Shown in pieces: positions 16,443 through 51,711 of a stretch of DNA of 64,000 bases. The notes beneath the pieces were generated by a model that made no database searches, was not told the DNA's origin, and saw nothing but the letters and a program-made list of their open reading frames with translations. This stretch comes from a virus (lineage: Duplodnaviria; Caudoviricetes), in the IMG/VR virus record IMGVR_UViG_3300028586_000003, positions 738 to 64,737 of that record; one strand, 5' to 3'. The position numbers and the translations under genes were made by a program. Within the stretch, counting starts at the first letter, position 1; every line of letters begins with the position of its first letter.

Positions 16443-16529
16443 GCCGCGGTAGTTCAGTCCGGTAGAACACAACGGCCGCTTTCGGGCGGTGTCAGTAGGG
16501 GGCCGGCGGTTCAAATCCGCCTCGCGGCA
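16443..16529 (+). ncRNA. tRNA-like RNA lacking a canonical anticodon arm
   Basis: Acceptor GCCGCGG/TCGCGGC, U8-A9, D arm GTTC-AGTCCGGTA-GAAC, T arm GGCGG-TTCAAAT-CCGCC, G15/C48, discriminator A, no CCA; 35-nt central part folds as an irregular helix capped by UUCG. Confidence 0.85.
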
Positions 16530-38156: not shown

Positions 38157-38314
38157 CAGTACCCACTCCCGAAGTTGTTGAGCCCCTCCAGGACGAACCG
38201 GAGCACGGAGAGCAGCGGCCGCGCCCAGAGGGGGAAGGTGAAGAAGAACAGCATCGTCGACACGGCCCACCAGCGCGCACCGCCAGCGACGACAGCAGAG
38301 ATAGACTTGCTCAC
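38156..38314 (-). CDS. Small membrane protein (52 aa, not in ORF track)
   Basis: MSKSISAVVAGGARWWAVSTMLFFFTFPLWARPLLSVLRFVLEGLNNFGSGY; coupled at both ends. Confidence 0.5.
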   Translation of the reverse strand: MSKSISAVVAGGARWWAVSTMLFFFTFPLWARPLLSVLRFVLEGLNNFGSGY

Positions 38315-39279
38315 GATACGGACTCCTTGCCACCAAGCATGCGGATCCAGCGGGCCCCACGGATCGAGCGGGTTGTGCCCACGGTCAGTTCAAAGTCGAT
38401 TTCCACGACCATCGGCGTGCCCTCGTGATTGCGCTGCTCGATCAAGCGGCCTTCTGTCGGTGACCAGCCGCCCGTGATCTTCAGCGGCTTGCTCCCGCTC
38501 GGTTCCGGACCGCGCAGCATCACCGAATGGAGCTTGCCCGCCTTGTGCAGCACGTCGATCACCGAACACGGCGCGCGGAACCGTTCTTTGATCTTCATCC
38601 AGCCCGCCGAGCGGCGGCGTTCGAACGGGCTTCCGGGTTCCTTCGACACCAGCCCTTCGAAGCCAGCCGCCCAAACCTCTCGTGCTTTCGCTAACGTCGC
38701 GGGCCCGTCGAGGAGCCAGAAGTCGAGGAAGCCGACGAAGAGACCCGTTTCGCACCGCACGAACGCCTCGCGCAGGGCCTCCAGCCGCTGTTCGATCGGG
38801 ACAAGGTAATCCTTGCCGGTGACCCACGCGCCATGCGGGATCGCGTCGTAAATCCAGAACGTGCCCTCGCCGCGGCCTGCCTTGAACTCGGCAAGCGTAT
38901 CGGTGAAGCCGTCGTGCGCGGAGTATTCGCCAAAGAATACCATCGGGCACCCCATGAACTCCTCCAGCCGCGCTAGACCGGGCTGGCAGTGCAGGGCGCA
39001 ATCCATCGGCCCGCCTTCGCGCCCACCGATCACAGAGCCGTCAACGTAGATGCCGTTGAGCCCGTCGACCTTGATCTGTGTGACGCGCTTGTGCGTCTTG
39101 GTGGAGCGGCCCCAGTCCTCGAAGCTCGCGGCCTCCCACGTCGTCGACAGCATGCACAACTCGGGCGCGGCGGCGGCTCCGTGGATCATGCGCGGCGGCG
39201 TCGCGGCTGGCGTCTCGAAGCGCGGGGCGTCTTCGTGCGGGATCATGAACCCGGTGAGGGCGTTGAGGAACTTAACCAC
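38311..39279 (-). CDS. ATP-dependent DNA ligase
   Basis: Motif I QIKVDG, III FGEY, IIIa FWIYD, IV FEGLVSK, V WMKIK; start uncertain. Confidence 0.8.
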   Translation of the reverse strand: MVKFLNALTGFMIPHEDAPRFETPAATPPRMIHGAAAAPELCMLSTTWEAASFEDWGRSTKTHKRVTQIKVDGLNGIYVDGSVIGGREGGPMDCALHCQPGLARLEEFMGCPMVFFGEYSAHDGFTDTLAEFKAGRGEGTFWIYDAIPHGAWVTGKDYLVPIEQRLEALREAFVRCETGLFVGFLDFWLLDGPATLAKAREVWAAGFEGLVSKEPGSPFERRRSAGWMKIKERFRAPCSVIDVLHKAGKLHSVMLRGPEPSGSKPLKITGGWSPTEGRLIEQRNHEGTPMVVEIDFELTVGTTRSIRGARWIRMLGGKESVS

Positions 39280-39502
39280 GGGCGAACTCCTGCAATGCGG
39301 CGATGAGGCCGGGGACGGATGCGTGATCGACAATCACGGTCTCATGACCAGTCGCCGCGCTGTTTTGGGTGATCGCAATTCCGCCGTTCTCCATGTCGTC
39401 AACCGACAGATCGAACCACGGCGCGTTCGTCACAGTGATGGGGCCATCAACCACGGGCGTTGTCCTTCTCCATTGCCTTCTGGAAAGCGATGCGATCCAC
39501 AA
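39272..39502 (-). CDS. Hypothetical protein
   Basis: ORF in operon; start uncertain. Confidence 0.4.
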   Translation of the reverse strand: MWIASLSRRQWRRTTPVVDGPITVTNAPWFDLSVDDMENGGIAITQNSAATGHETVIVDHASVPGLIAALQEFARG

Positions 39503-39998: not shown

Positions 39999-40225
39999 TT
40001 TGCGTCTCCGGTGGTAAAGGTTGCGCCCTTAGCGGCGTTGTGAACTGCATCGGTGAGAGCTTCGGGCGAGCATGCCGCGCTGTCTTCAGCGTCTAGCGCG
40101 TCCTCCAGTGCGGCGGCTTCATCGCGAAGCCAATCGATAGGCATTCCGCCCAGTGCATCGAGCAGGGCCCGAGCGGCGGCGTTGACGGTCATCGGCATGT
40201 GCGGGCCTTCAGCGTGCGAGGACAA
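39995..40225 (-). CDS. Hypothetical protein
   Basis: Coupled ORF. Confidence 0.45.
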   Translation of the reverse strand: MSSHAEGPHMPMTVNAAARALLDALGGMPIDWLRDEAAALEDALDAEDSAACSPEALTDAVHNAAKGATFTTGDAN

Positions 40226-40772
40226 GCGAGGGGACGGGCGGAGCCATCAGGGCCGCACCTGCGAACCGTGCGGCGCGCTTCCCCTCCAGACGACGGGCAA
40301 GGGCGGCGGCTTCAGCGCGAGCACCGGCCAAATCGGCCCGGAGACGTGCGTTCTCCGCCTCCACGGCCTCCAGACGTGCCAACAGGTCAGGGGACACCGT
40401 CGCGGCGGCTGGCGATGCCTTAGCGCGCGTTTTGCGGGCGGGCGTGATGCCGGTCCATTCCTTCACCTGTGCGGCGGTCATCGGAAGCTTGCCCGACTTG
40501 TCCACCGGCAAGGGCAGGGTGCGCACGACGTTGCCGCCGTCGTCGAGGATCTCGCACGTTACCGTCTGCGACTGTCCATAACCCGGCATCTCCAGCACGA
40601 GCGCATTGCAGTCGAAAACGCCCTGCGCTGCAAAGCGTGCATCCGGGGAGAGGCACAAGCCACGCGAGCGCGCCAGCCATCGGAGATAGAATTCGCGCTC
40701 CGCCGTGTTCGCGTCGCGTGCCTTCGGGTCAATCGTGTCGATGTAGGGGGTAACGTCCATAATCGTGCTCAT
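40209..40772 (-). CDS. Early hypothetical protein (first gene after hammerhead 1)
   Basis: ATG 40772 after conserved AAACGAAAGAACACACG leader. Confidence 0.6.
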   Translation of the reverse strand: MSTIMDVTPYIDTIDPKARDANTAEREFYLRWLARSRGLCLSPDARFAAQGVFDCNALVLEMPGYGQSQTVTCEILDDGGNVVRTLPLPVDKSGKLPMTAAQVKEWTGITPARKTRAKASPAAATVSPDLLARLEAVEAENARLRADLAGARAEAAALARRLEGKRAARFAGAALMAPPVPSLVLAR

Positions 40773-40798
40773 CGTGTGTTCTTTCGTTTCTGTGCCTT

Positions 40799-40852
40799 GC
40801 CTCATCAGCACCGGAGCGGCGGCCCGGTGGACGCCCTTGCGGGCGTTTCGGC
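40799..40852 (-). ncRNA. Hammerhead ribozyme, type II (copy 1)
   Basis: GCC-GAAAC-GCCC(GCAA)GGGC-GTC^-CACCGG/CCGGTG-CTGATGA-GGC; cleavage predicted between 40830 and 40829. Confidence 0.93.
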
Positions 40853-40853
40853 T

Positions 40854-41126
40854 TCACCAATCGTATGTAGGCAAACCCTCCAGCGTGGGGCCGTCGTTAT
40901 CGAGCATCAGCCAATCGGCACCCGCCTTGCTCGCCATCTCCAGCACGTCGCGCAGGTCGTCCGGGTCACCCTCATGCGGGGCGGAGACGTGCAGGAAGTG
41001 CCCATAATCGCCCTTCAGGTAACAGGACGCGCGGTGGTCCGGTAAATACGAGTTGCACGTCTGGTTAGTGATGTGCGCAGTCGAGATAACGAGCATGCGG
41101 GCGAATTCGAAAGTTGGGCGTGCCAT
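40854..41126 (-). CDS. Early hypothetical protein (STAH-motif family)
   Basis: MLVISTAHIT motif, recalled from mobile-element proteins (DUF5983-like, unverified). Confidence 0.55.
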   Translation of the reverse strand: MARPTFEFARMLVISTAHITNQTCNSYLPDHRASCYLKGDYGHFLHVSAPHEGDPDDLRDVLEMASKAGADWLMLDNDGPTLEGLPTYDW

Positions 41127-41128
41127 GA

Positions 41129-41482
41129 TTAGTCCTCTCCACGATCTGCGATAACGGCGGCGCACGGGGCGCGACTGCAATCGATGCTAGGGCGGTGGCA
41201 TGCCGTGCAATCCTCACCATCAGCCGCCGCCGCGAGGTCGTCGTCCCCCTCTTCGTCCTCTTCGTGCTCCATATCGTGCATCAGCGCGCGGGCCTTCGCC
41301 CACTCCTCCGCATCAAAGGGCTTGCCCGTCGCTTCGTCACGGCGGCGTTGCAGGTGCATCAGATTGGTTACGAGGTCCGGGATGCCGTCGCATTCGTCCG
41401 TGCCGCCCAGTTGCATGAATGCGTCTAGCGCGACCTGTGCCCAGTTAGCGCGGTCCGAGTTGGTGGGTGCTCCGTAGATCAT
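41129..41482 (-). CDS. Early hypothetical protein
   Basis: NSDRANWAQVALDAF...DLVTNLMH; C-terminal CxxC...C. Confidence 0.6.
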   Translation of the reverse strand: MIYGAPTNSDRANWAQVALDAFMQLGGTDECDGIPDLVTNLMHLQRRRDEATGKPFDAEEWAKARALMHDMEHEEDEEGDDDLAAAADGEDCTACHRPSIDCSRAPCAAVIADRGED

Positions 41483-41485
41483 CGT

Positions 41486-42418
41486 TCAACCCTCCTTCGC
41501 GGTGTCGGTGATGGCCTCGACATCGACAGCGCCTTCAATGTCGAAGCGGACATCGTCGATAGTGGGGCGGCCTTCAGCACTGGAGACAGAGTTCCACCCG
41601 TCTAGCGCTGCATCGGGGCTCATGAGGTCCGTGACGCGCAACGCTTCAGCCTTCGCGGCGGCGGCGTTCGGTGCGGTAACCTCGACAGTGACGCACAGGG
41701 TTAGCGAGACATCGAAGCGCTTCACCGGCGGCAACACGAAGTCGGCGAGCGCGCCACACGCCGCGCCTACTGCCATGCGCAGGGTTACCGCCTGTTGATC
41801 GCTCACGAAGTCTAGAATGCTGTCGCTGTCGCTGTCGCGATACGTGCCCACCTGCCAACTATCCGGGGAAGGCATGCCGCCGCCGCCCTCGCACGTCACG
41901 AGCACATAGGAACCGTGCGGCCCTTCGTGGCGGAGATACAGACACCCGCCGCCGCCGTGCTCAACCTGCATGCCCATTTCATCGACCAGCCAAGCGCGCA
42001 AACCAGCGTCGAGGTCGTCGAGGGGCGAACGAAACTCAATCTTCGTGCCGGGGAAGAGGTGCGGAATGCGCGAGGCGCTACGGATGCGCGGGGAATTGTC
42101 GCTCCAGTCGATATTCGCGACGATCCAATCCGGGATGAATTCCCAGTCAAAGCTCCGCCCGTACTGCCCGCCATCAGGGAACTTGCCGCCGTCCGTGTCG
42201 GCATCCTTCCACGCGGCTTCTACGGCGTCCGTCCACCCTATTGCGGTCATGCGCAGGGCGGCGGCTCCGATGGCTTCGCGGGTGGCGCGGATGGCCTTAG
42301 CGGACGGTGCGAGTTCGCCCGCGATCTCGACGCGCTCCATATCGAGCACGGCTTCCCAGATGCTTGCGGCAGTCTCCAGCGCGGCGGCGGGATAGATAAG
42401 GCGTGGGGTGATCGGCAT
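41486..42418 (-). CDS. Early multi-domain hypothetical protein (first gene after hammerhead 2)
   Basis: 310 aa, mosaic of short segments. Confidence 0.6.
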   Translation of the reverse strand: MPITPRLIYPAAALETAASIWEAVLDMERVEIAGELAPSAKAIRATREAIGAAALRMTAIGWTDAVEAAWKDADTDGGKFPDGGQYGRSFDWEFIPDWIVANIDWSDNSPRIRSASRIPHLFPGTKIEFRSPLDDLDAGLRAWLVDEMGMQVEHGGGGCLYLRHEGPHGSYVLVTCEGGGGMPSPDSWQVGTYRDSDSDSILDFVSDQQAVTLRMAVGAACGALADFVLPPVKRFDVSLTLCVTVEVTAPNAAAAKAEALRVTDLMSPDAALDGWNSVSSAEGRPTIDDVRFDIEGAVDVEAITDTAKEG

Positions 42419-42444
42419 CGTTCAATCTTTCGTTTCTAGGGGCT

Positions 42445-42500
42445 GGCTCATCAGCACCCGGACGCCCTGCCCGGATGGACCCGCTTGCGCGGGTTTCGCC
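42445..42500 (-). ncRNA. Hammerhead ribozyme, type II (copy 2)
   Basis: GGC-GAAAC-CCGC(GCAA)GCGG-GTC^-CATCCGG/CCGGGTG-CTGATGA-GCC; cleavage between 42478 and 42477. Confidence 0.93.
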
Positions 42501-42827
42501 TTATGCGACGAACGCCGGGGGGCCGTGGCGCACTGCCCAGATTGCCGCCGGGTGGTTGTAGGGCATGATATCGCCGGGGATCATGCGCCGTTGCACGGCA
42601 TCCGCTGGCACCTGCACATAACGGTGCCGAGCGTCGTGCGCGTTGTGCGTTAATTCGGTAAGCTGGCGAACGCTGGCGACGACGAAGCCCGCGCCGGTCG
42701 TTCCGCTAAGGTCCGGAACCAATGCAATCGCGGAGCCTGCGGGGAGGGTGAAGGGATAGCCGCCGCGTGTGACGTTCGCCCACGCGACTAGATCGAGGTC
42801 GCGGGTGGTGGTGTGCGTGACGCGCAT
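42501..42827 (-). CDS. Early hypothetical protein
   Basis: MRVTHTTTRDL start; TAA abuts hammerhead 2. Confidence 0.55.
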   Translation of the reverse strand: MRVTHTTTRDLDLVAWANVTRGGYPFTLPAGSAIALVPDLSGTTGAGFVVASVRQLTELTHNAHDARHRYVQVPADAVQRRMIPGDIMPYNHPAAIWAVRHGPPAFVA

Positions 42828-42828
42828 T

Positions 42829-43320
42829 TTAGAGCCCCTCCACGCCGAGCGCGGCGCGCATGTTGATGAGTAGGGCGGATATGCCCTCTTGCAGTTCGTC
42901 ACCCTCGAAACCCTCCACGAAGCGCAGGGCGTCACGTAGGGCGGCAATCATCTCGGGGACGCGGGCGATGGCCTCCCCATTGCGGAGCTTGTCCGTAGCG
43001 GCGTCCGCGCCCGCCAGTGAGGCGACACAATAGTTTTGCGGAACCGTGCGGATGGTGTCGGTCTGCGGCTCATACGTCCACTTCGTCGCCATCGGGCTTG
43101 CGGCGAGGCGTGCGGCGCGCTGTTCGTCGTTCTCCGCCTGGCATACGCCGTTGGTGACATATACGCGCTTCAGCACGTCGCGGGGCTGGAGGACGCCAAC
43201 GGCCTCGCGCGCTTGCCGAGCTTCCCGGACGATGCGGGCGCTTTCCTCGCTCTTGCCGTGGATGCCCGAGCGCTGGAGGGCGACGTGCGCGCCCGAGATG
43301 GTGAAAGCATGCCGAGCCAT
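42829..43320 (-). CDS. Early hypothetical protein
   Basis: Coupled ORF. Confidence 0.55.
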   Translation of the reverse strand: MARHAFTISGAHVALQRSGIHGKSEESARIVREARQAREAVGVLQPRDVLKRVYVTNGVCQAENDEQRAARLAASPMATKWTYEPQTDTIRTVPQNYCVASLAGADAATDKLRNGEAIARVPEMIAALRDALRFVEGFEGDELQEGISALLINMRAALGVEGL

Positions 43321-43745
43321 TATGCGTCACCCCCATTGAGCACGCGCAGGGCCGACAGCACCTCTTCGAGGCTATGGCACGCCTTCGACAAGTCCCAATC
43401 GCGTTCGCGCCCGCCGGGGAGAACGTGATAGACGGTGACGCCGTACAGAGCATCGCCCATGAATTCGCCCGCCGACACCTCGACAATGAGGGGGCCCGCG
43501 CCAGTGCCAGCCATCGAGCGAATAGCGATGAGGTCCGGGCTCATCACGTTGGCGGCGCTAAGGCTCTTGTGCTGCTCGCCGCTCAACTGGCGGAGCGCTT
43601 CGGGCTTAGTGACCGCAACGCCGTATTCAGACGACGCGGTGCTTTTGATGGCGGCGCGAGCGGCCGCGAGGTCGCGGTCATACTGGCAACCCGAGGAGAT
43701 GCGCTTATCGACGAAGTGCCCGAGCAGGCGGTTTGCGTGTGCCAT
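43320..43745 (-). CDS. Early hypothetical protein
   Basis: MAHANRLLGHF start; EVSAGEFMGDALYGVTV segment. Confidence 0.55.
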   Translation of the reverse strand: MAHANRLLGHFVDKRISSGCQYDRDLAAARAAIKSTASSEYGVAVTKPEALRQLSGEQHKSLSAANVMSPDLIAIRSMAGTGAGPLIVEVSAGEFMGDALYGVTVYHVLPGGRERDWDLSKACHSLEEVLSALRVLNGGDA

Positions 43746-43749
43746 GTGA

Positions 43750-43896
43750 TTAAGCCTCGAATGCGAGCGAGAGGAACTTGCGGGCGGATGCGACCCGGCG
43801 AGCACGGTTCATGTAGACCGTGTGGAGCTTCGCGCCGTTGGTGCGCGTGCGGTCGCGCTTCTGGAGGTCAACGGGCTTTGCGAGAGATACGGACAT
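43750..43896 (-). CDS. Small basic early protein (first gene after hammerhead 3)
   Basis: 48 aa after conserved AAACGAAGGAACACACG leader. Confidence 0.55.
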   Translation of the reverse strand: MSVSLAKPVDLQKRDRTRTNGAKLHTVYMNRARRVASARKFLSLAFEA

Positions 43897-43921
43897 CGTG
43901 TGTTCCTTCGTTTCAGGGTCT

Positions 43922-43985
43922 AGGCTCATCAGCGGGGGGACGACCAAGCCACCCCGGACACCCGCGCTAGGCGGGCGTTTCGCCT
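43922..43985 (-). ncRNA. Hammerhead ribozyme, type II (copy 3)
   Basis: AGGC-GAAAC-GCCCGC(CTAGC)GCGGGT-GTC^-CGGGG/CCCCG-CTGATGA-GCCT; cleavage between 43957 and 43956. Confidence 0.92.
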
Positions 43986-44422
43986 TACGATTTAGGCCAG
44001 ATCGAACATTCGGCCGCGTGCATGACGCACCCGCCGAGTTCCCTTGCTGCATCCTCAAAAGTGAGGCCGTCGCGATACTGGAAACCATAGATGACGGTGA
44101 AGCGGTCCGGCCCTTGCTGATAGAGGCTAACGCCGAATCGCGGCCCGCCATCGCTCCAAACCTTCACGCCCTTAGCGGACCTGCGCAGGGTGGCGGATAC
44201 CATCGCCTGCGGTACGCCATCCTGCATCGGGTGGTGGTTAAAGAATGCCAGTTCGTGCCCAAGCTCGGGCATCTTACCGGGCTTCAGGGGGGCGGTATTC
44301 TCGCGACCATACACAAGGGCGGATTGCCCTGCATTGGTGGTCACGTAGCACGCGCCCGGATAGCGCCCCATGCAGGAGCTAACGGCCTTGATGCGGGTGG
44401 GATACTTGCCACGGTAGGTCAT
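43985..44422 (-). CDS. Early hypothetical protein
   Basis: FTVIYGFQYRDGLTFEDAARELGGCVMHA C-terminus; TAA abuts hammerhead 3. Confidence 0.6.
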   Translation of the reverse strand: MTYRGKYPTRIKAVSSCMGRYPGACYVTTNAGQSALVYGRENTAPLKPGKMPELGHELAFFNHHPMQDGVPQAMVSATLRRSAKGVKVWSDGGPRFGVSLYQQGPDRFTVIYGFQYRDGLTFEDAARELGGCVMHAAECSIWPKS

Positions 44423-44945: not shown

Positions 44946-45200
44946 GTTCGTTCCTTCGGTTCAGGCCAGTTGCGAACGGGCATCCCGTCGGCTGGCGAAT
45001 CAGTCTTTGGCATGAATGCACGGGGCGCGCAATAGTTGCGCACATCATCGGCAAAAAGATTGAGACAGATCGCACGCGCGCAGGCGACGACGACGCCAGG
45101 CGGGCACGCGCGGGGCTGGTATCTGCGCGCGAATCGGGCGCGGCGCGTGGGTCGCGATCGGTCAGGATGTCAAGCCCTCGAGGGCACCCCCCCCGGGTCT

Positions 45201-45384
45201 GGGTCCTCCCCCCGCGCCCGAATGGGCATAGCGGTGAAGGACCGCTTATTTAGTCAGATCGAGTTCTGGAAATTATTTGCGAAACGACAACGGCCCGTCG
45301 ACTCCACGTTAATTTCCCGCCCCACGAATGAGGCGGCGGAAATTAACGCGGGTCGGAATTGCGAAATTGCGCAAATTCGCAATT
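45201..45384 (+). other. Candidate cos site (cosQ-cosN-cosB arrangement)
   Basis: GGGTCCT 45201-45207 (identical to lambda cosQ), 23 nt, dyad GCGGT-GAAGG-ACCGC 45231-45245, then AT-rich tract with inverted repeats 45307-45348 and 45357-45384. Confidence 0.6.
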
Positions 45385-47207
45385 TAGACGCCTTCGCCCT
45401 CGTGCTCTGCGCAGAGGAACCAGATGTTTTCGGGTCCGAAGAGCGCTTCCCGCTCCGGTCCGGCCGGATAGTCGTCGGCATCGGCAAGCGGGACGATGTT
45501 GAGCGCCTTGCCGGTGCTCGGCTTGCCGCAGATGGCGCATCCGCTGTCGGCCGGCGCTTCCTGCTCGAGCACGTACTTCGCCAGCCGCTTGATCCGGCTC
45601 TCATCCGTAAAGCGCGCCGCCTGGATCACGCCCGGGTCATGGATCCCGCGCGCCTGATCGCTCTTAATGCCGTTGATCTCCATCAGCACCGGATCGCTTC
45701 CGTGGTCGACATAGGGGAAGTGGGCGTTGACCTGCAGCATCTGTCCAGGGCGGCGCACGCGGCCGATGACTTGGTGGTGGACCTGTGGCGACCAATCGAA
45801 CTCGCCGATCACGACCTCATTGCAATACTGCTGAAGGCCGTCGAGCCCGGCGCCGGAGCGAAGCGAGATCATCATGACCCTGCTCCTGCCGACCGTGAAA
45901 TTGTTGATCGACCGGATCTTCTTCGCCGAGTCCTCGCTCCCCGTGTAGAGCACCGGGTTGAAGTCGGCCAAAGCCTTCAGCCAAAGCGCGTAGACGTCAC
46001 GGTGCCAGCCCGCGAGCAGCACGCGCGGTGCATCCTGGAGCAGAAGGCGGACATAGGCGGCAACCGACCTAGCCTTCCCCACGCCAGTCATCTTGCGCAT
46101 GTGCATGTCTAGTTCGCGCGCCGCACTGCCGGCGGTGGCGAAACTTCCGCCCATCACTCGCATCGCGAGCTTGCGGGTCAACTCGGCATCATCCTCCGCG
46201 TCGTCGTCGTTCCAATCGAGCTCTATCGGGATGATGTTGGGCTTCGGCATAGATTGTTGGACGGTTGGATCGTCCTCGGTACGGCGGAGCATCCATCCGC
46301 TATCCTTCAGGAACTCGCCGAGCGCGTCAGGCTCCTTCACAATACGGCCAGCGGCGCACCACTCGCGCACGAACTCCTCGCGCTCGCCGAGTAGATCCGG
46401 GTTGAGGAATTCCATGATCGTATGGATTTCGTCGCCGTAGTTGTACGTCGCGGTGGCAGTCAGCCCCATCTTGAACTTGGCGCGCGCACTGATGATCGCG
46501 CAGCACTTGCCCTTCGCCGTCTCGGTCCCCGTGCGAAGCTCCTGGATCTCATCGTACCCGATGGATTTCAGAAATCCGTTTTTCAGGAAGTCGATCCAGC
46601 CCCCGACGTTGGAGTAGCGGAAGATGTAAATGTCGGCGGGCGGCAATGTGTACGGCGTCGTCGAATAGATGATGTGGCAGGTGTAATTCGTGAAGCTTTC
46701 GATCCGTTGCGCCCACTGTTGCGTGAGATGAGCCTGCACGACGACGCCGGCGGGAAACGGCGCTCCCATTGCCAGGGCGGTGAGATAAGAGTTGGTCTTG
46801 CCCAAACCGACCTCATCGGCGAGCAGGAGCCCGCCCTGGTCGACAGCGATCTTGGCGGCCTGCGACTGGTAGAGGTAGGGAGACTGCCCATCCTTGATGC
46901 CCTTCGCCGGCGCCGGCCGCCACTCGGGGGACAGGATCTCCCCGCGCAGCGCCATCCGATCCTTCAGCGCTTTGTCGCCCGCCTTCAGCATCGCGGCGTG
47001 CATGGTCTCCAGCGGGTAGCGCTGCATGAACCAGTGGAGATCCGCGCGGACATTATCGTTGTCCGACAGGAAGTGCTTCACGTCGTAGGAGGCGACCCGC
47101 GGGAACAGCCGCTTGAAAGCGAGCGCGACGTGCGGCGCCAAGTTGTCGACGACCCACCGGGCATTCTTACCGGGCTCGAGCATCACCCGGCCGTACGTCT
47201 TCAGCAT
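45384..47207 (-). CDS. SNF2-family helicase/ATPase
   Basis: ADEVGLGKT, YDEIQ, GLTAT, GAGLDGLQ, QVIGRVRRPGQ. Confidence 0.88.
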   Translation of the reverse strand: MLKTYGRVMLEPGKNARWVVDNLAPHVALAFKRLFPRVASYDVKHFLSDNDNVRADLHWFMQRYPLETMHAAMLKAGDKALKDRMALRGEILSPEWRPAPAKGIKDGQSPYLYQSQAAKIAVDQGGLLLADEVGLGKTNSYLTALAMGAPFPAGVVVQAHLTQQWAQRIESFTNYTCHIIYSTTPYTLPPADIYIFRYSNVGGWIDFLKNGFLKSIGYDEIQELRTGTETAKGKCCAIISARAKFKMGLTATATYNYGDEIHTIMEFLNPDLLGEREEFVREWCAAGRIVKEPDALGEFLKDSGWMLRRTEDDPTVQQSMPKPNIIPIELDWNDDDAEDDAELTRKLAMRVMGGSFATAGSAARELDMHMRKMTGVGKARSVAAYVRLLLQDAPRVLLAGWHRDVYALWLKALADFNPVLYTGSEDSAKKIRSINNFTVGRSRVMMISLRSGAGLDGLQQYCNEVVIGEFDWSPQVHHQVIGRVRRPGQMLQVNAHFPYVDHGSDPVLMEINGIKSDQARGIHDPGVIQAARFTDESRIKRLAKYVLEQEAPADSGCAICGKPSTGKALNIVPLADADDYPAGPEREALFGPENIWFLCAEHEGEGV

Positions 47208-51219: not shown

Positions 51220-51711
51220 TTAGACGTCGTCGCGCGACCGCGGCGGTATGGTCGCGCCGGGCTTGCGGCCGAGCCCGATCTTCTTCGCCATCGCGCGGCG
51301 GCTCTCGCTGTAGTTGGGAGCGACCATCGGATAGTCCGGCTTCAGGCCGAATTCCTCACGGTACGATTCGGGCGTCATGCCGTGCGTCGTCAGATGCCGG
51401 CGGAGCGTCTTGTACGACTTGCCGTCGATGAGCGAGATGATGAAGTCGGGCGATGCCGTCGACTTGCGCACCGATACGGCCGGCTCGCGCGGACCGCTGG
51501 TAGGAGGTGACGACGGGATCGGCGCAGTCGCCAGTTCCGGTTGCGGCATCACGGACGCATTGAGCACCGAACGATGCACGCCCTCGATCAAGGTGCGGGC
51601 TTCCTCCGGCTTCAAGTCGCGGCCCTGCGCGGCGATGATCGCGACGGTGATGCTCGCCGACATCGCCATCAGCGGCGCGGAAGTGGTGAAGTGGGTACGG
51701 GTATCGGTCAT
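51220..51711 (-). CDS. mucR: MucR/Ros family transcriptional regulator
   Basis: IISLIDGKSYKTLRRHLTTHGMTPESYREEFGLKPDYPMVAPNYS. Confidence 0.92.
   Translation of the reverse strand: MTDTRTHFTTSAPLMAMSASITVAIIAAQGRDLKPEEARTLIEGVHRSVLNASVMPQPELATAPIPSSPPTSGPREPAVSVRKSTASPDFIISLIDGKSYKTLRRHLTTHGMTPESYREEFGLKPDYPMVAPNYSESRRAMAKKIGLGRKPGATIPPRSRDDV

Follow-up and report, generated by a model that had tools for sequence, protein, structure and literature searches.

Three type II hammerhead ribozymes between the gene blocks of an uncultivated siphovirus-like phage, with counterparts in related records

Hammerhead ribozymes set in series along phage DNA have been described before. In prophages, individual genes or small sets of genes often have several hammerheads around them. 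Cleavage is known for triple arrays from Agrobacterium tumefaciens, Azorhizobium caulinodans and Clostridium scindens, and it takes place both in vitro and in E. coli for those of alphaproteobacterial prophages; the proposal made from these arrays was that long phage transcripts are processed to operon- or gene-length mRNAs, the flanked genes themselves not being constant (Perreault et al. 2011, PLoS Comput Biol, PMC3088659). Three type II hammerheads of Desulfovibrio vulgaris that lie near phage-like genes cleave in vivo (PMC8782182), and a 2019 review repeated the processing idea, with the purpose still undefined (PMC6765202). Here we describe three type II hammerheads, called HH3, HH2 and HH1 from upstream to downstream, on the minus strand of a virus (Duplodnaviria; Caudoviricetes) known as IMG/VR record IMGVR_UViG_3300028586_000003. 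The stretch analysed (hereafter the window) comprises 64,000 nucleotides, positions 738 to 64,737, and is nearly all of this 64,737-bp record, which has terminal repeats and is rated 100% complete.

By its make-up the locus is a clustered array, with at least two same-strand intergenic hammerheads flanking gene blocks of phage DNA, and it is a clean new example of a known phage layout, not a new type of system. As in the arrays of Perreault et al., the intergenic gaps of one strand carry several hammerheads in a span of a few kb, and the genes that they flank are variable and mostly unknown; those arrays, too, include triples in alphaproteobacteria and gave rise to the same processing proposal. 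Unlike them, the array described here belongs to an uncultivated, siphovirus-like phage of 64.7 kb that has no close cultured relative. An earlier note on this DNA, made from the letters alone, had held the repeated use of hammerheads as operon punctuation to be unusual, a view contradicted by the fact that this layout has been known since 2011 (PMC3088659). What is new is a set of orthologous ribozyme positions around a hypervariable island, the reassortment of blocks at the middle ribozyme, a constant distance from stop and start codons, and a leader that the copies have in common.

The three elements were confirmed as genuine type II hammerhead ribozymes. A search with the Rfam model Hammerhead_II (RF02276; gathering score 37 bits), which the earlier note had advised, matched all three minus-strand sites: HH2 (49.5 bits) and HH1 (41.7 bits) reached the cut-off, and a permissive search gave HH3, whose core is complete, a score of 33.7 bits (E 0.0027 over 34 kb, 1.2e-6 per genome). 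HH3 falls short because its loop I is long (13–14 nt) and its stem I short (5 bp); with model R1, built in this analysis, it scores 62.1 bits. The RF02276 search of the whole record found no fourth hammerhead, and the three are thus the full set. Each copy runs in the order stem II 5' strand, GAAA, stem III, GUC, stem I, CUGAUGA, stem II 3' strand, with stems I (5–9 bp) and III (6–8 bp) closed by loops and a 3-bp stem II left open, which is the type II topology. Judged by the core positions C3-U4-G5-A6-N7-G8-A9, G12-A13-A14, the A15.1-U16.1 pair and H17 at the cleavage site, the GAAA, the A15.1-U16.1 pair, the GUC triplet and the CUGAUGA are intact in HH1, HH2 and HH3 alike, both on reading and on parsing the sequence, and H17 is C17 in all three. 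Parsing thus agreed with the earlier note on the full core in type II order at three minus-strand sites, on the stem sequences quoted there and on the predicted 5' ends (Table 1). The elements share with the RF02276 family the core, the helix order, the open stem II and a putative loop I pseudoknot with nucleotides after stem II, and differ from it in the sub-threshold score of HH3 and in a stem II of just 3 bp in all copies. Folded in context, HH3 and HH1 are predicted to form the canonical three-way junction, and the core of HH2 is predicted to be partly paired with its 3' flank.

A search in related phages, likewise advised earlier, was run via the neighbouring proteins, namely an SNF2 helicase (45384–47207), a ligase-like protein (38311–39333) and the protein of 310 amino acids (aa) encoded after HH2, and it returned 13 further hammerheads in six related records, for a total of 16 copies in seven records. 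The helicase and the ligase-like protein led to L004 (IMGVR_UViG_3300034069_000992), with three hammerheads, and L030 (IMGVR_UViG_3300034069_001421), with two, and homologues of the 310-aa protein led to L046, with three, and to L096 and L093, with two each. In addition, contig L044, from a Sphingomonadaceae metagenome-assembled genome (MAG; G012:C140), carries one type II hammerhead at 1501–1581 (Rfam 28 bits; 37.4 bits with our own model), which overlaps a TGA stop codon and lies ~25 nt ahead of an ATG. The result is a natural comparison set of four sister records with two to three hammerheads, one contig bounded by hammerheads at either side, and one single MAG copy. CUGAUGA, GAAA and GUC are kept in 15 of the 16 copies (12 of the 13 related ones); the exception, L096 503–567, reads CUGAAGA, a U-to-A change at variable position 7, and has UC replacing GUC before the cut.

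Wider searches were mostly negative. No hammerhead was found in nine IMG/VR phages and nine metagenome loci with helicases 39–59% identical, the ligase-like alignment A2 had no match in metagenome contigs and matched one short Sphingomonadaceae MAG contig among genome contigs, and the phage collection contained no close relative of the window phage. Searched for in IMG/VR, the pattern CTGATGAG..GAAACGAARGA had a sister phage as its sole true match, ten other records being chance matches with no hammerhead. Among 151 Sphingomonadaceae genomes RF02276 gave one match under strict filters, a count that says little on frequency.

The stems have kept their pairing although their sequences vary. RNAalifold recovered the three-way junction from eight sequences, and this served as the consensus for an 11-sequence model. 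In the 11-copy alignment, standard pairs occupy 95.8% of cells as against 79.3% after shuffling and the covariation score is 0.478 as against 0.151, neither value being reached by any of 500 shuffles; compensatory changes occur at 7 of 13 pairs, compared with 3.9 in shuffled alignments (4 of 500 shuffles reach this), and sliding the register by 1–3 columns lowers the pairing to 31–41%. Stem II takes the forms GGC/GCC, GCC/GGC and GUC/GAC across copies. Between loop I and the 3' flank, Watson–Crick matches of 3–5 bp occur in all 11 aligned copies (eight of them found by eye), in differing sequences: GCC:GGC, GUCC:GGAC, GGGC:GCCC, GGGU:ACCC, GGUC:GACC, UGGCA:UGCCA and GUGCG:CGCAC. The summed length of this putative pseudoknot over six copies is matched by 1.1% of shuffles.

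The ribozymes are regularly placed. The three copies lie within 3.2 kb and bound blocks of four and three genes; inside the blocks the genes overlap or abut, as do the three open reading frames (ORFs) of 141, 163 and 108 aa, and across ~38.3–44.9 kb the ribozyme sites are the sole intergenic gaps, an apparent gap before the ligase-like gene holding a small ORF. In the window, stop codons TAA, TAA and TGA end 0, 0 and 1 nt ahead of stem II and the distance from the end of stem II to the ATG is 25 nt at each copy, in keeping with the spacing that the earlier note had reported (stops 0–1 nt before each element and an ATG about 25 nt after it). The same geometry holds in the relatives: in every one of the 12 copies measured, −1 to +2 nt separate the end of the stop codon from stem II, and the predicted cut lies 23–38 nt past the stop and 53–60 nt ahead of the next AUG (23–28 nt after the stop, with a leader of 57–60 nt downstream, for the window copies).

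After each window ribozyme the motif GAAACGAARGA is followed by 7 nt to the ATG. In the window it occurs free of mismatches at the three hammerheads only; at one mismatch or fewer there are six matches, a number that 0 of 100 shuffles reach. A leader consensus, GAA(A/C)CGAA(A/G)GAAC..ATG, is common to the first ORF of the operon and to the starts that follow the ribozymes, and the 16-mer GAACGAAGGAACGAAC stands before ribozyme-free starts as well, both in the window and in L045, L046 and further high-GC IMG/VR phages; most of its 40 matches in IMG/VR are due to chance, and a few lie directly ahead of an ATG that has no ribozyme. Because the leader also precedes ribozyme-free ATGs, we regard it as a generic translation initiation region and not as part of the ribozyme, and judging from these occurrences it looks like a strong, host-group-specific one. 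The idea that its GAAAC belongs to a second hammerhead-like core was rejected, this stretch not being conserved in the sister copies, which read CGAAUGAAAGA, CGAACGAAGGA or ACGAAGGAAG.

Because intact hammerheads sit at the intercistronic junctions of a tightly packed same-strand series, the most economical explanation is that one transcript is cut into four blocks, and we consider it probable that active type II hammerheads cut one minus-strand polycistronic mRNA into four RNAs. Transcription would probably start in the gene-free region at ~44963–45383; its timing may be early, judging from the closeness of the array to this likely promoter and from the divergent operon start in three relatives (L004, L045 and L046), in which the equivalent region sits between divergent genes. 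Each ~60-nt motif would fold as it emerges, aided by the pseudoknot between loop I and the 3' flank, and would cut itself after the GUC triplet, whereupon the products, held by the 3-bp stem II alone, should part at once. The upstream RNA would then carry a 2',3'-cyclic phosphate and have as its last part the G+C-rich stem III hairpin and one further nucleotide. The downstream RNA would open straight away with the stem I hairpin, its first nucleotide bearing the 5'-OH; after this would come the leader, the purine-rich ribosome-binding region and the first AUG of a set of translationally coupled genes. Exonucleases that work from the 3' end are hindered by a hairpin there, and decay that depends on a 5'-monophosphate acts poorly on a 5'-OH end within a hairpin; blocks whose ends are set in such hairpins may fairly be expected to live longer, or to have lifetimes independent of one another. 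The likely outcome would be that the gene blocks of this accessory region, which changes fast, are expressed and broken down separately from one another.

A comparison with the early mRNA of phage T7, drawn in the earlier note, is apt for this outcome but does not extend to a common family. In T7, host RNase III cuts structured intercistronic sites, leaving 5'-phosphate and 3'-OH termini and hairpin 3' ends. Both systems would turn one long transcript into discrete mRNAs with hairpin 3' ends; there, however, a host protein does the cutting, whereas here the cut would be made by the RNA, with 5'-OH and 2',3'-cyclic phosphate termini as the result.

Several observations weigh against processing of one transcript into four RNAs. 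HH3 scores below the 37-bit cut-off, as noted above. The pseudoknots of the window copies are just 3–4 bp long and singly weak, in that 16–81% of shuffled loops match as well and none is significant alone; the covarying loop I pairing put forward in the earlier note exists as sequence matches and is significant for six copies taken jointly. In two related contigs the same slots are filled by an element that lacks the core (see below). The predicted accessibility of the ribosome-binding region is equal in cleaved and uncleaved RNA (0.54–0.74), and no translational benefit is therefore visible in silico; the idea that cleavage unmasks this region was accordingly rejected, the predicted unpaired probability being about equal both ways. 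Finally, transcription of this strand and its cleavage in this phage are something that we infer from the sequence, and the self-processing into four blocks suggested by the earlier note is to this extent upheld for its structural half, intact ribozymes at the junctions of a packed same-strand series, with cleavage itself probable.

The genes around the array fit a siphovirus-like genome: the plus strand encodes terminase, portal and major head proteins and a tape-measure protein of 1717 aa, and a long minus-strand series encodes RecT, a DnaG-type primase, a Ros/MucR regulator (51220–51711), a C-5 methylase and the SNF2 helicase. Weak evidence for an alphaproteobacterial host, perhaps a sphingomonad, comes from the Ros/MucR gene and the MAG match. 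The features of the array are listed in Table 1. Searched with Pfam and PHROGs, the flanked genes gave DUF5983 for the 90-aa ORF and otherwise weak matches, and nearly all are orphans. Between the ribozymes, terminator-like and promoter-like sites do not exceed chance; like the shared strand and the overlapping genes, this lends indirect support to a common precursor transcript.

Table 1 Features of the array in the order in which the minus strand would be read; small ORFs lie between the gene-free region and the 145-aa ORF, and further genes follow the 187-aa ORF
Feature	Coordinates	Strand	Remarks
Gene-free region, ~420 nt	44963–45383	minus	Follows the SNF2 helicase gene; candidate start of the transcription unit
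Leader GAACCGAAGGAACGAAC	44946–44962	minus	Similar leader with no ribozyme, before the first small ORF of the series (ATG 44945, 50 aa)
145-aa ORF	43985–44422	minus	Last gene of block 0; TAA directly at HH3; C-terminus homologous to the gene before the first L004 hammerhead
HH3	43919–43985	minus	Most upstream; predicted cut after C43957, new 5' end 43956; stem II GGC/GCC, stem III 8 bp, stem I 5 bp; loop I GGUC : flank GACC
Leader GAAACGAAGGAACACACG	43897–43914	minus	Purine-rich, Shine–Dalgarno-like initiation region between HH3 and ATG 43896
48-aa very basic protein	43750–43896	minus	First gene of block 1; C-terminus ..FLxLAF..
141-aa ORF	43320–43745	minus	Block 1; no relatives in sister phages
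163-aa ORF	42829–43320	minus	Block 1; no relatives in sister phages
108-aa ORF	42501–42827	minus	Block 1, ends at HH2; no relatives in sister phages
HH2	42437–42501	minus	Predicted cut after C42478, new 5' end 42477; stem II GGC/GCC, stem III 6 bp with GCAA loop, stem I 7–9 bp; loop I GGGC : flank GCCC
Leader GAAACGAAAGAUUGAACG	42419–42436	minus	Between HH2 and ATG 42418
310-aa ORF	41486–42418	minus	First gene of block 2; homologues beside hammerheads in L046, L096 and L093
117-aa ORF	41129–41482	minus	Block 2
90-aa ORF	40854–41126	minus	Block 2; DUF5983, PF19419, E 1.8e-20
HH1	40791–40853	minus	Most downstream; predicted cut after C40830, new 5' end 40829; stem II GCC/GGC, stem III 6 bp with GCAA loop, stem I 6–7 bp; loop I GCC : flank GGC
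Leader GAAACGAAAGAACACACG	40773–40790	minus	Between HH1 and ATG 40772
187-aa ORF	40209–40772	minus	First gene of block 3; homologues follow the last hammerhead in L004, L030 and L046

Some further features may be listed here. The gene-free region gave no convincing sigma-70 match; at 45300–45340 (minus) it holds a 13-bp perfect inverted repeat, GTTAATTTCCGCC .. GGCGGGAAATTAAC, together with an AT-rich tract, AAATTGCGAATTTGCGCAATTTCGCAATT, which may represent an operator, a terminator or something akin to an origin. The ligase-like protein is 340 aa long, carries a KxDG-type motif (QIKVDG), is encoded on the minus strand and is kept downstream of the array in all sister phages; it has no Pfam match, its L045 homologue gives weak DNA-ligase domain matches, and we take the window protein for a probable ATP-dependent ligase of divergent sequence. 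The 359-aa protein P0010 at L047 6001–7080 is distantly related to the 310-aa protein (E 2.6e-11 across roughly one third of the length); it carries DUF5983, the family of the 90-aa ORF of the same window block, and its gene lies beside MarR and toxin–antitoxin genes on an apparently bacterial contig. On the plus strand, at 16443–16529 and just upstream of the tape-measure gene, there is an Rfam tRNA match of 43.7 bits with a 28-nt insertion at the position of the anticodon arm.

Set side by side, the sister arrays have conserved ends and a variable middle. The first hammerhead always stands before a small, very basic protein of 46–76 aa, in the window (43750–43896, minus), L004 (15163–15393), L030 (6160–6300), L046 (5006–5149) and L093 (~1185–1330). 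This protein is arginine-rich with a conserved C-terminus, ..ARKFLxLAFEA; it belongs to no Pfam or PHROGs family, and a protein atlas had no useful match for the 48-aa copy. The last hammerhead always stands before a homologous gene of 187, 306, 396 or 540 aa. The genes between these anchors have no detectable similarity among the window, L004 and L030. In L046, block 1 is L004-like (50% and 72% identity) and the first gene of block 2 is window-like (48%), the switch falling at the middle hammerhead. HH2 and the L004 hammerhead HHb have the same stem I, flank and leader variant, GAUUG.AC, despite different neighbours on both sides. DNA contigs of relatives also lose similarity at the edges of hammerheads or leaders: in run X6 a related-phage contig joins 42503 to 43742, the 141-, 163- and 108-aa ORFs being lost or replaced, and loose ends fall at 42425 (X6) and 40780 (X3).

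These arrangements bear on a further reading, in which ribozyme and leader form the junction module of a gene-cassette system, a natural insulator that gives any block the same processed 5' end and ribosome-binding region. Such a role would add to self-cleavage and does not exclude it. If it were true, blocks could be swapped between phages without retuning their expression, and the conserved anchors around unrelated cargo, the block switch in L046, the sharing between HH2 and HHb and the breaks in contig similarity all speak for it. An engineered parallel exists in RiboJ, reportedly described by Lou et al. in 2012 as an insulator that combines a satellite-RNA hammerhead with an added hairpin and is placed after promoters. 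In both cases a hammerhead just upstream of a standard ribosome-binding region removes upstream RNA context, or would do so; RiboJ is, however, engineered and stands after promoters, whereas the phage elements lie between natural cistrons and their insulating role is putative. On the other side, the breakpoints of phage mosaics lie at gene boundaries anyway and a coincidence with hammerheads is to be expected, the copies are ~65–75% alike and thus a poor substrate for homologous recombination, the leader is generic and also precedes ribozyme-free ATGs in the window and in other high-GC phages, and the contig joints were matched at 80% likeness with short sides. Since mosaic joints would fall at gene boundaries in any case, we put the insulating role forward as a tentative possibility.

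The slots themselves, from stop codon to leader, are not always filled by a hammerhead. In L045 (4557–4640, 5701–5793 and 6330–6412) and L094 (401–492 and 1646–1732; L095 is a duplicate sample of L094) they contain a G+C-rich element of 80–90 nt, a three-way junction with the helix order of a type II hammerhead, and these slots flank homologues of the genes that flank the L046 hammerheads, the one at L045 5701–5793 lying between homologues of the genes on either side of the L046 middle hammerhead. The element is devoid of GAAA and keeps a mere remnant of CUGAUGA (GCUGAUGCCC in L094 1646–1736), and its junction strands are 2, 0 and 5 nt long. In the five copies, 25 consensus pairs include 14 with compensatory changes, and 93.6% of cells are paired compared with 77% after shuffling, a value that 0 of 500 shuffles reach. 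It matched no Rfam family, a search of the window and of 34 other loci with its covariance model (R2) yielded no copy, and a sequence pattern for it gave chance matches only. This core-less junction is probably a decayed hammerhead with retained hairpins, and possibly another processing element. Because it fills the same slots, self-cleavage as such may be dispensable for the slot's job. One could go further and regard the stop-to-leader slot as an exchangeable intercistronic processing module, filled by either an active hammerhead or a core-less junction and marking the joints of a cassette-swapping island, an extension that we think doubtful. If the core-less form is under selection, it may be cut in some other way, for example by a host nuclease or through a ribozyme core not yet recognised; alternatively, the job of the slot may be to provide terminal hairpins and to insulate reassorting blocks.

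The close fit between stop codon and stem II also admits a coupling of cleavage to translation. A ribosome at a stop codon shields ~12 nt downstream, and a terminating ribosome would therefore cover stem II and the GAAA strand, so that the RNA would be cut only when the upstream gene is not translated or after the ribosome has left. The spacing of −1 to +2 nt in every copy measured is what such a coupling would call for, but tight packing is also expected from economy of space, termination is brief, and no alternative pairing between the tail and the core was found (summed probability 0.03–1.5 of 10), nor is the core predicted to be masked by the 3' tail. We regard this coupling as improbable.

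The core-less slots of L045 and L094, with their covarying junction devoid of GAAA and of most of CUGAUGA, could further be taken to mean that the motifs are in general relics, or structural pairs of hairpins that serve as 3'-end stabilisers or host RNase sites, in which cleavage has been lost. Against this stands the catalytic core, which is kept among the 16 copies, with departures in one copy only, while the stems diverged; a core kept in this way is the signature of selection on catalysis, and it makes loss of cleavage very improbable for the hammerheads.

Lastly, 5'-OH and 2',3'-cyclic phosphate ends, which the internal blocks would carry, are the substrates of RtcB, and a chimeric stem II could arise if the 3' half of HH3 (GCC) paired with the HH2 5' half (GGC). 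That a reverse hammerhead reaction or a ligase of the RtcB type joins released blocks end to end, to circular or spliced RNAs, is nevertheless scarcely credible, given that the block between HH2 and HH1 would pit GCC against GCC and so form no stem II, that the blocks are 1.4–1.6 kb long with several ORFs and ordinary stops, that no RNA ligase or end-healing family was found among 40 window ORFs scanned (the ligase-like protein having no Pfam match), and that Perreault et al. sought spliced or circular products of their arrays and found none (PMC3088659).

Self-cleavage into four RNAs thus remains the reading that we prefer. This locus leaves the general picture of what bacterial and phage hammerheads are for unchanged, but it is well suited to experiments. 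It offers a clean case, with three intact ribozymes in a defined geometry, sister arrays in which blocks have been swapped, and counterparts that lack the core. With this material it should be possible to distinguish whether such hammerheads serve the stability of phage mRNAs, the insulation of newly acquired genes, or both.

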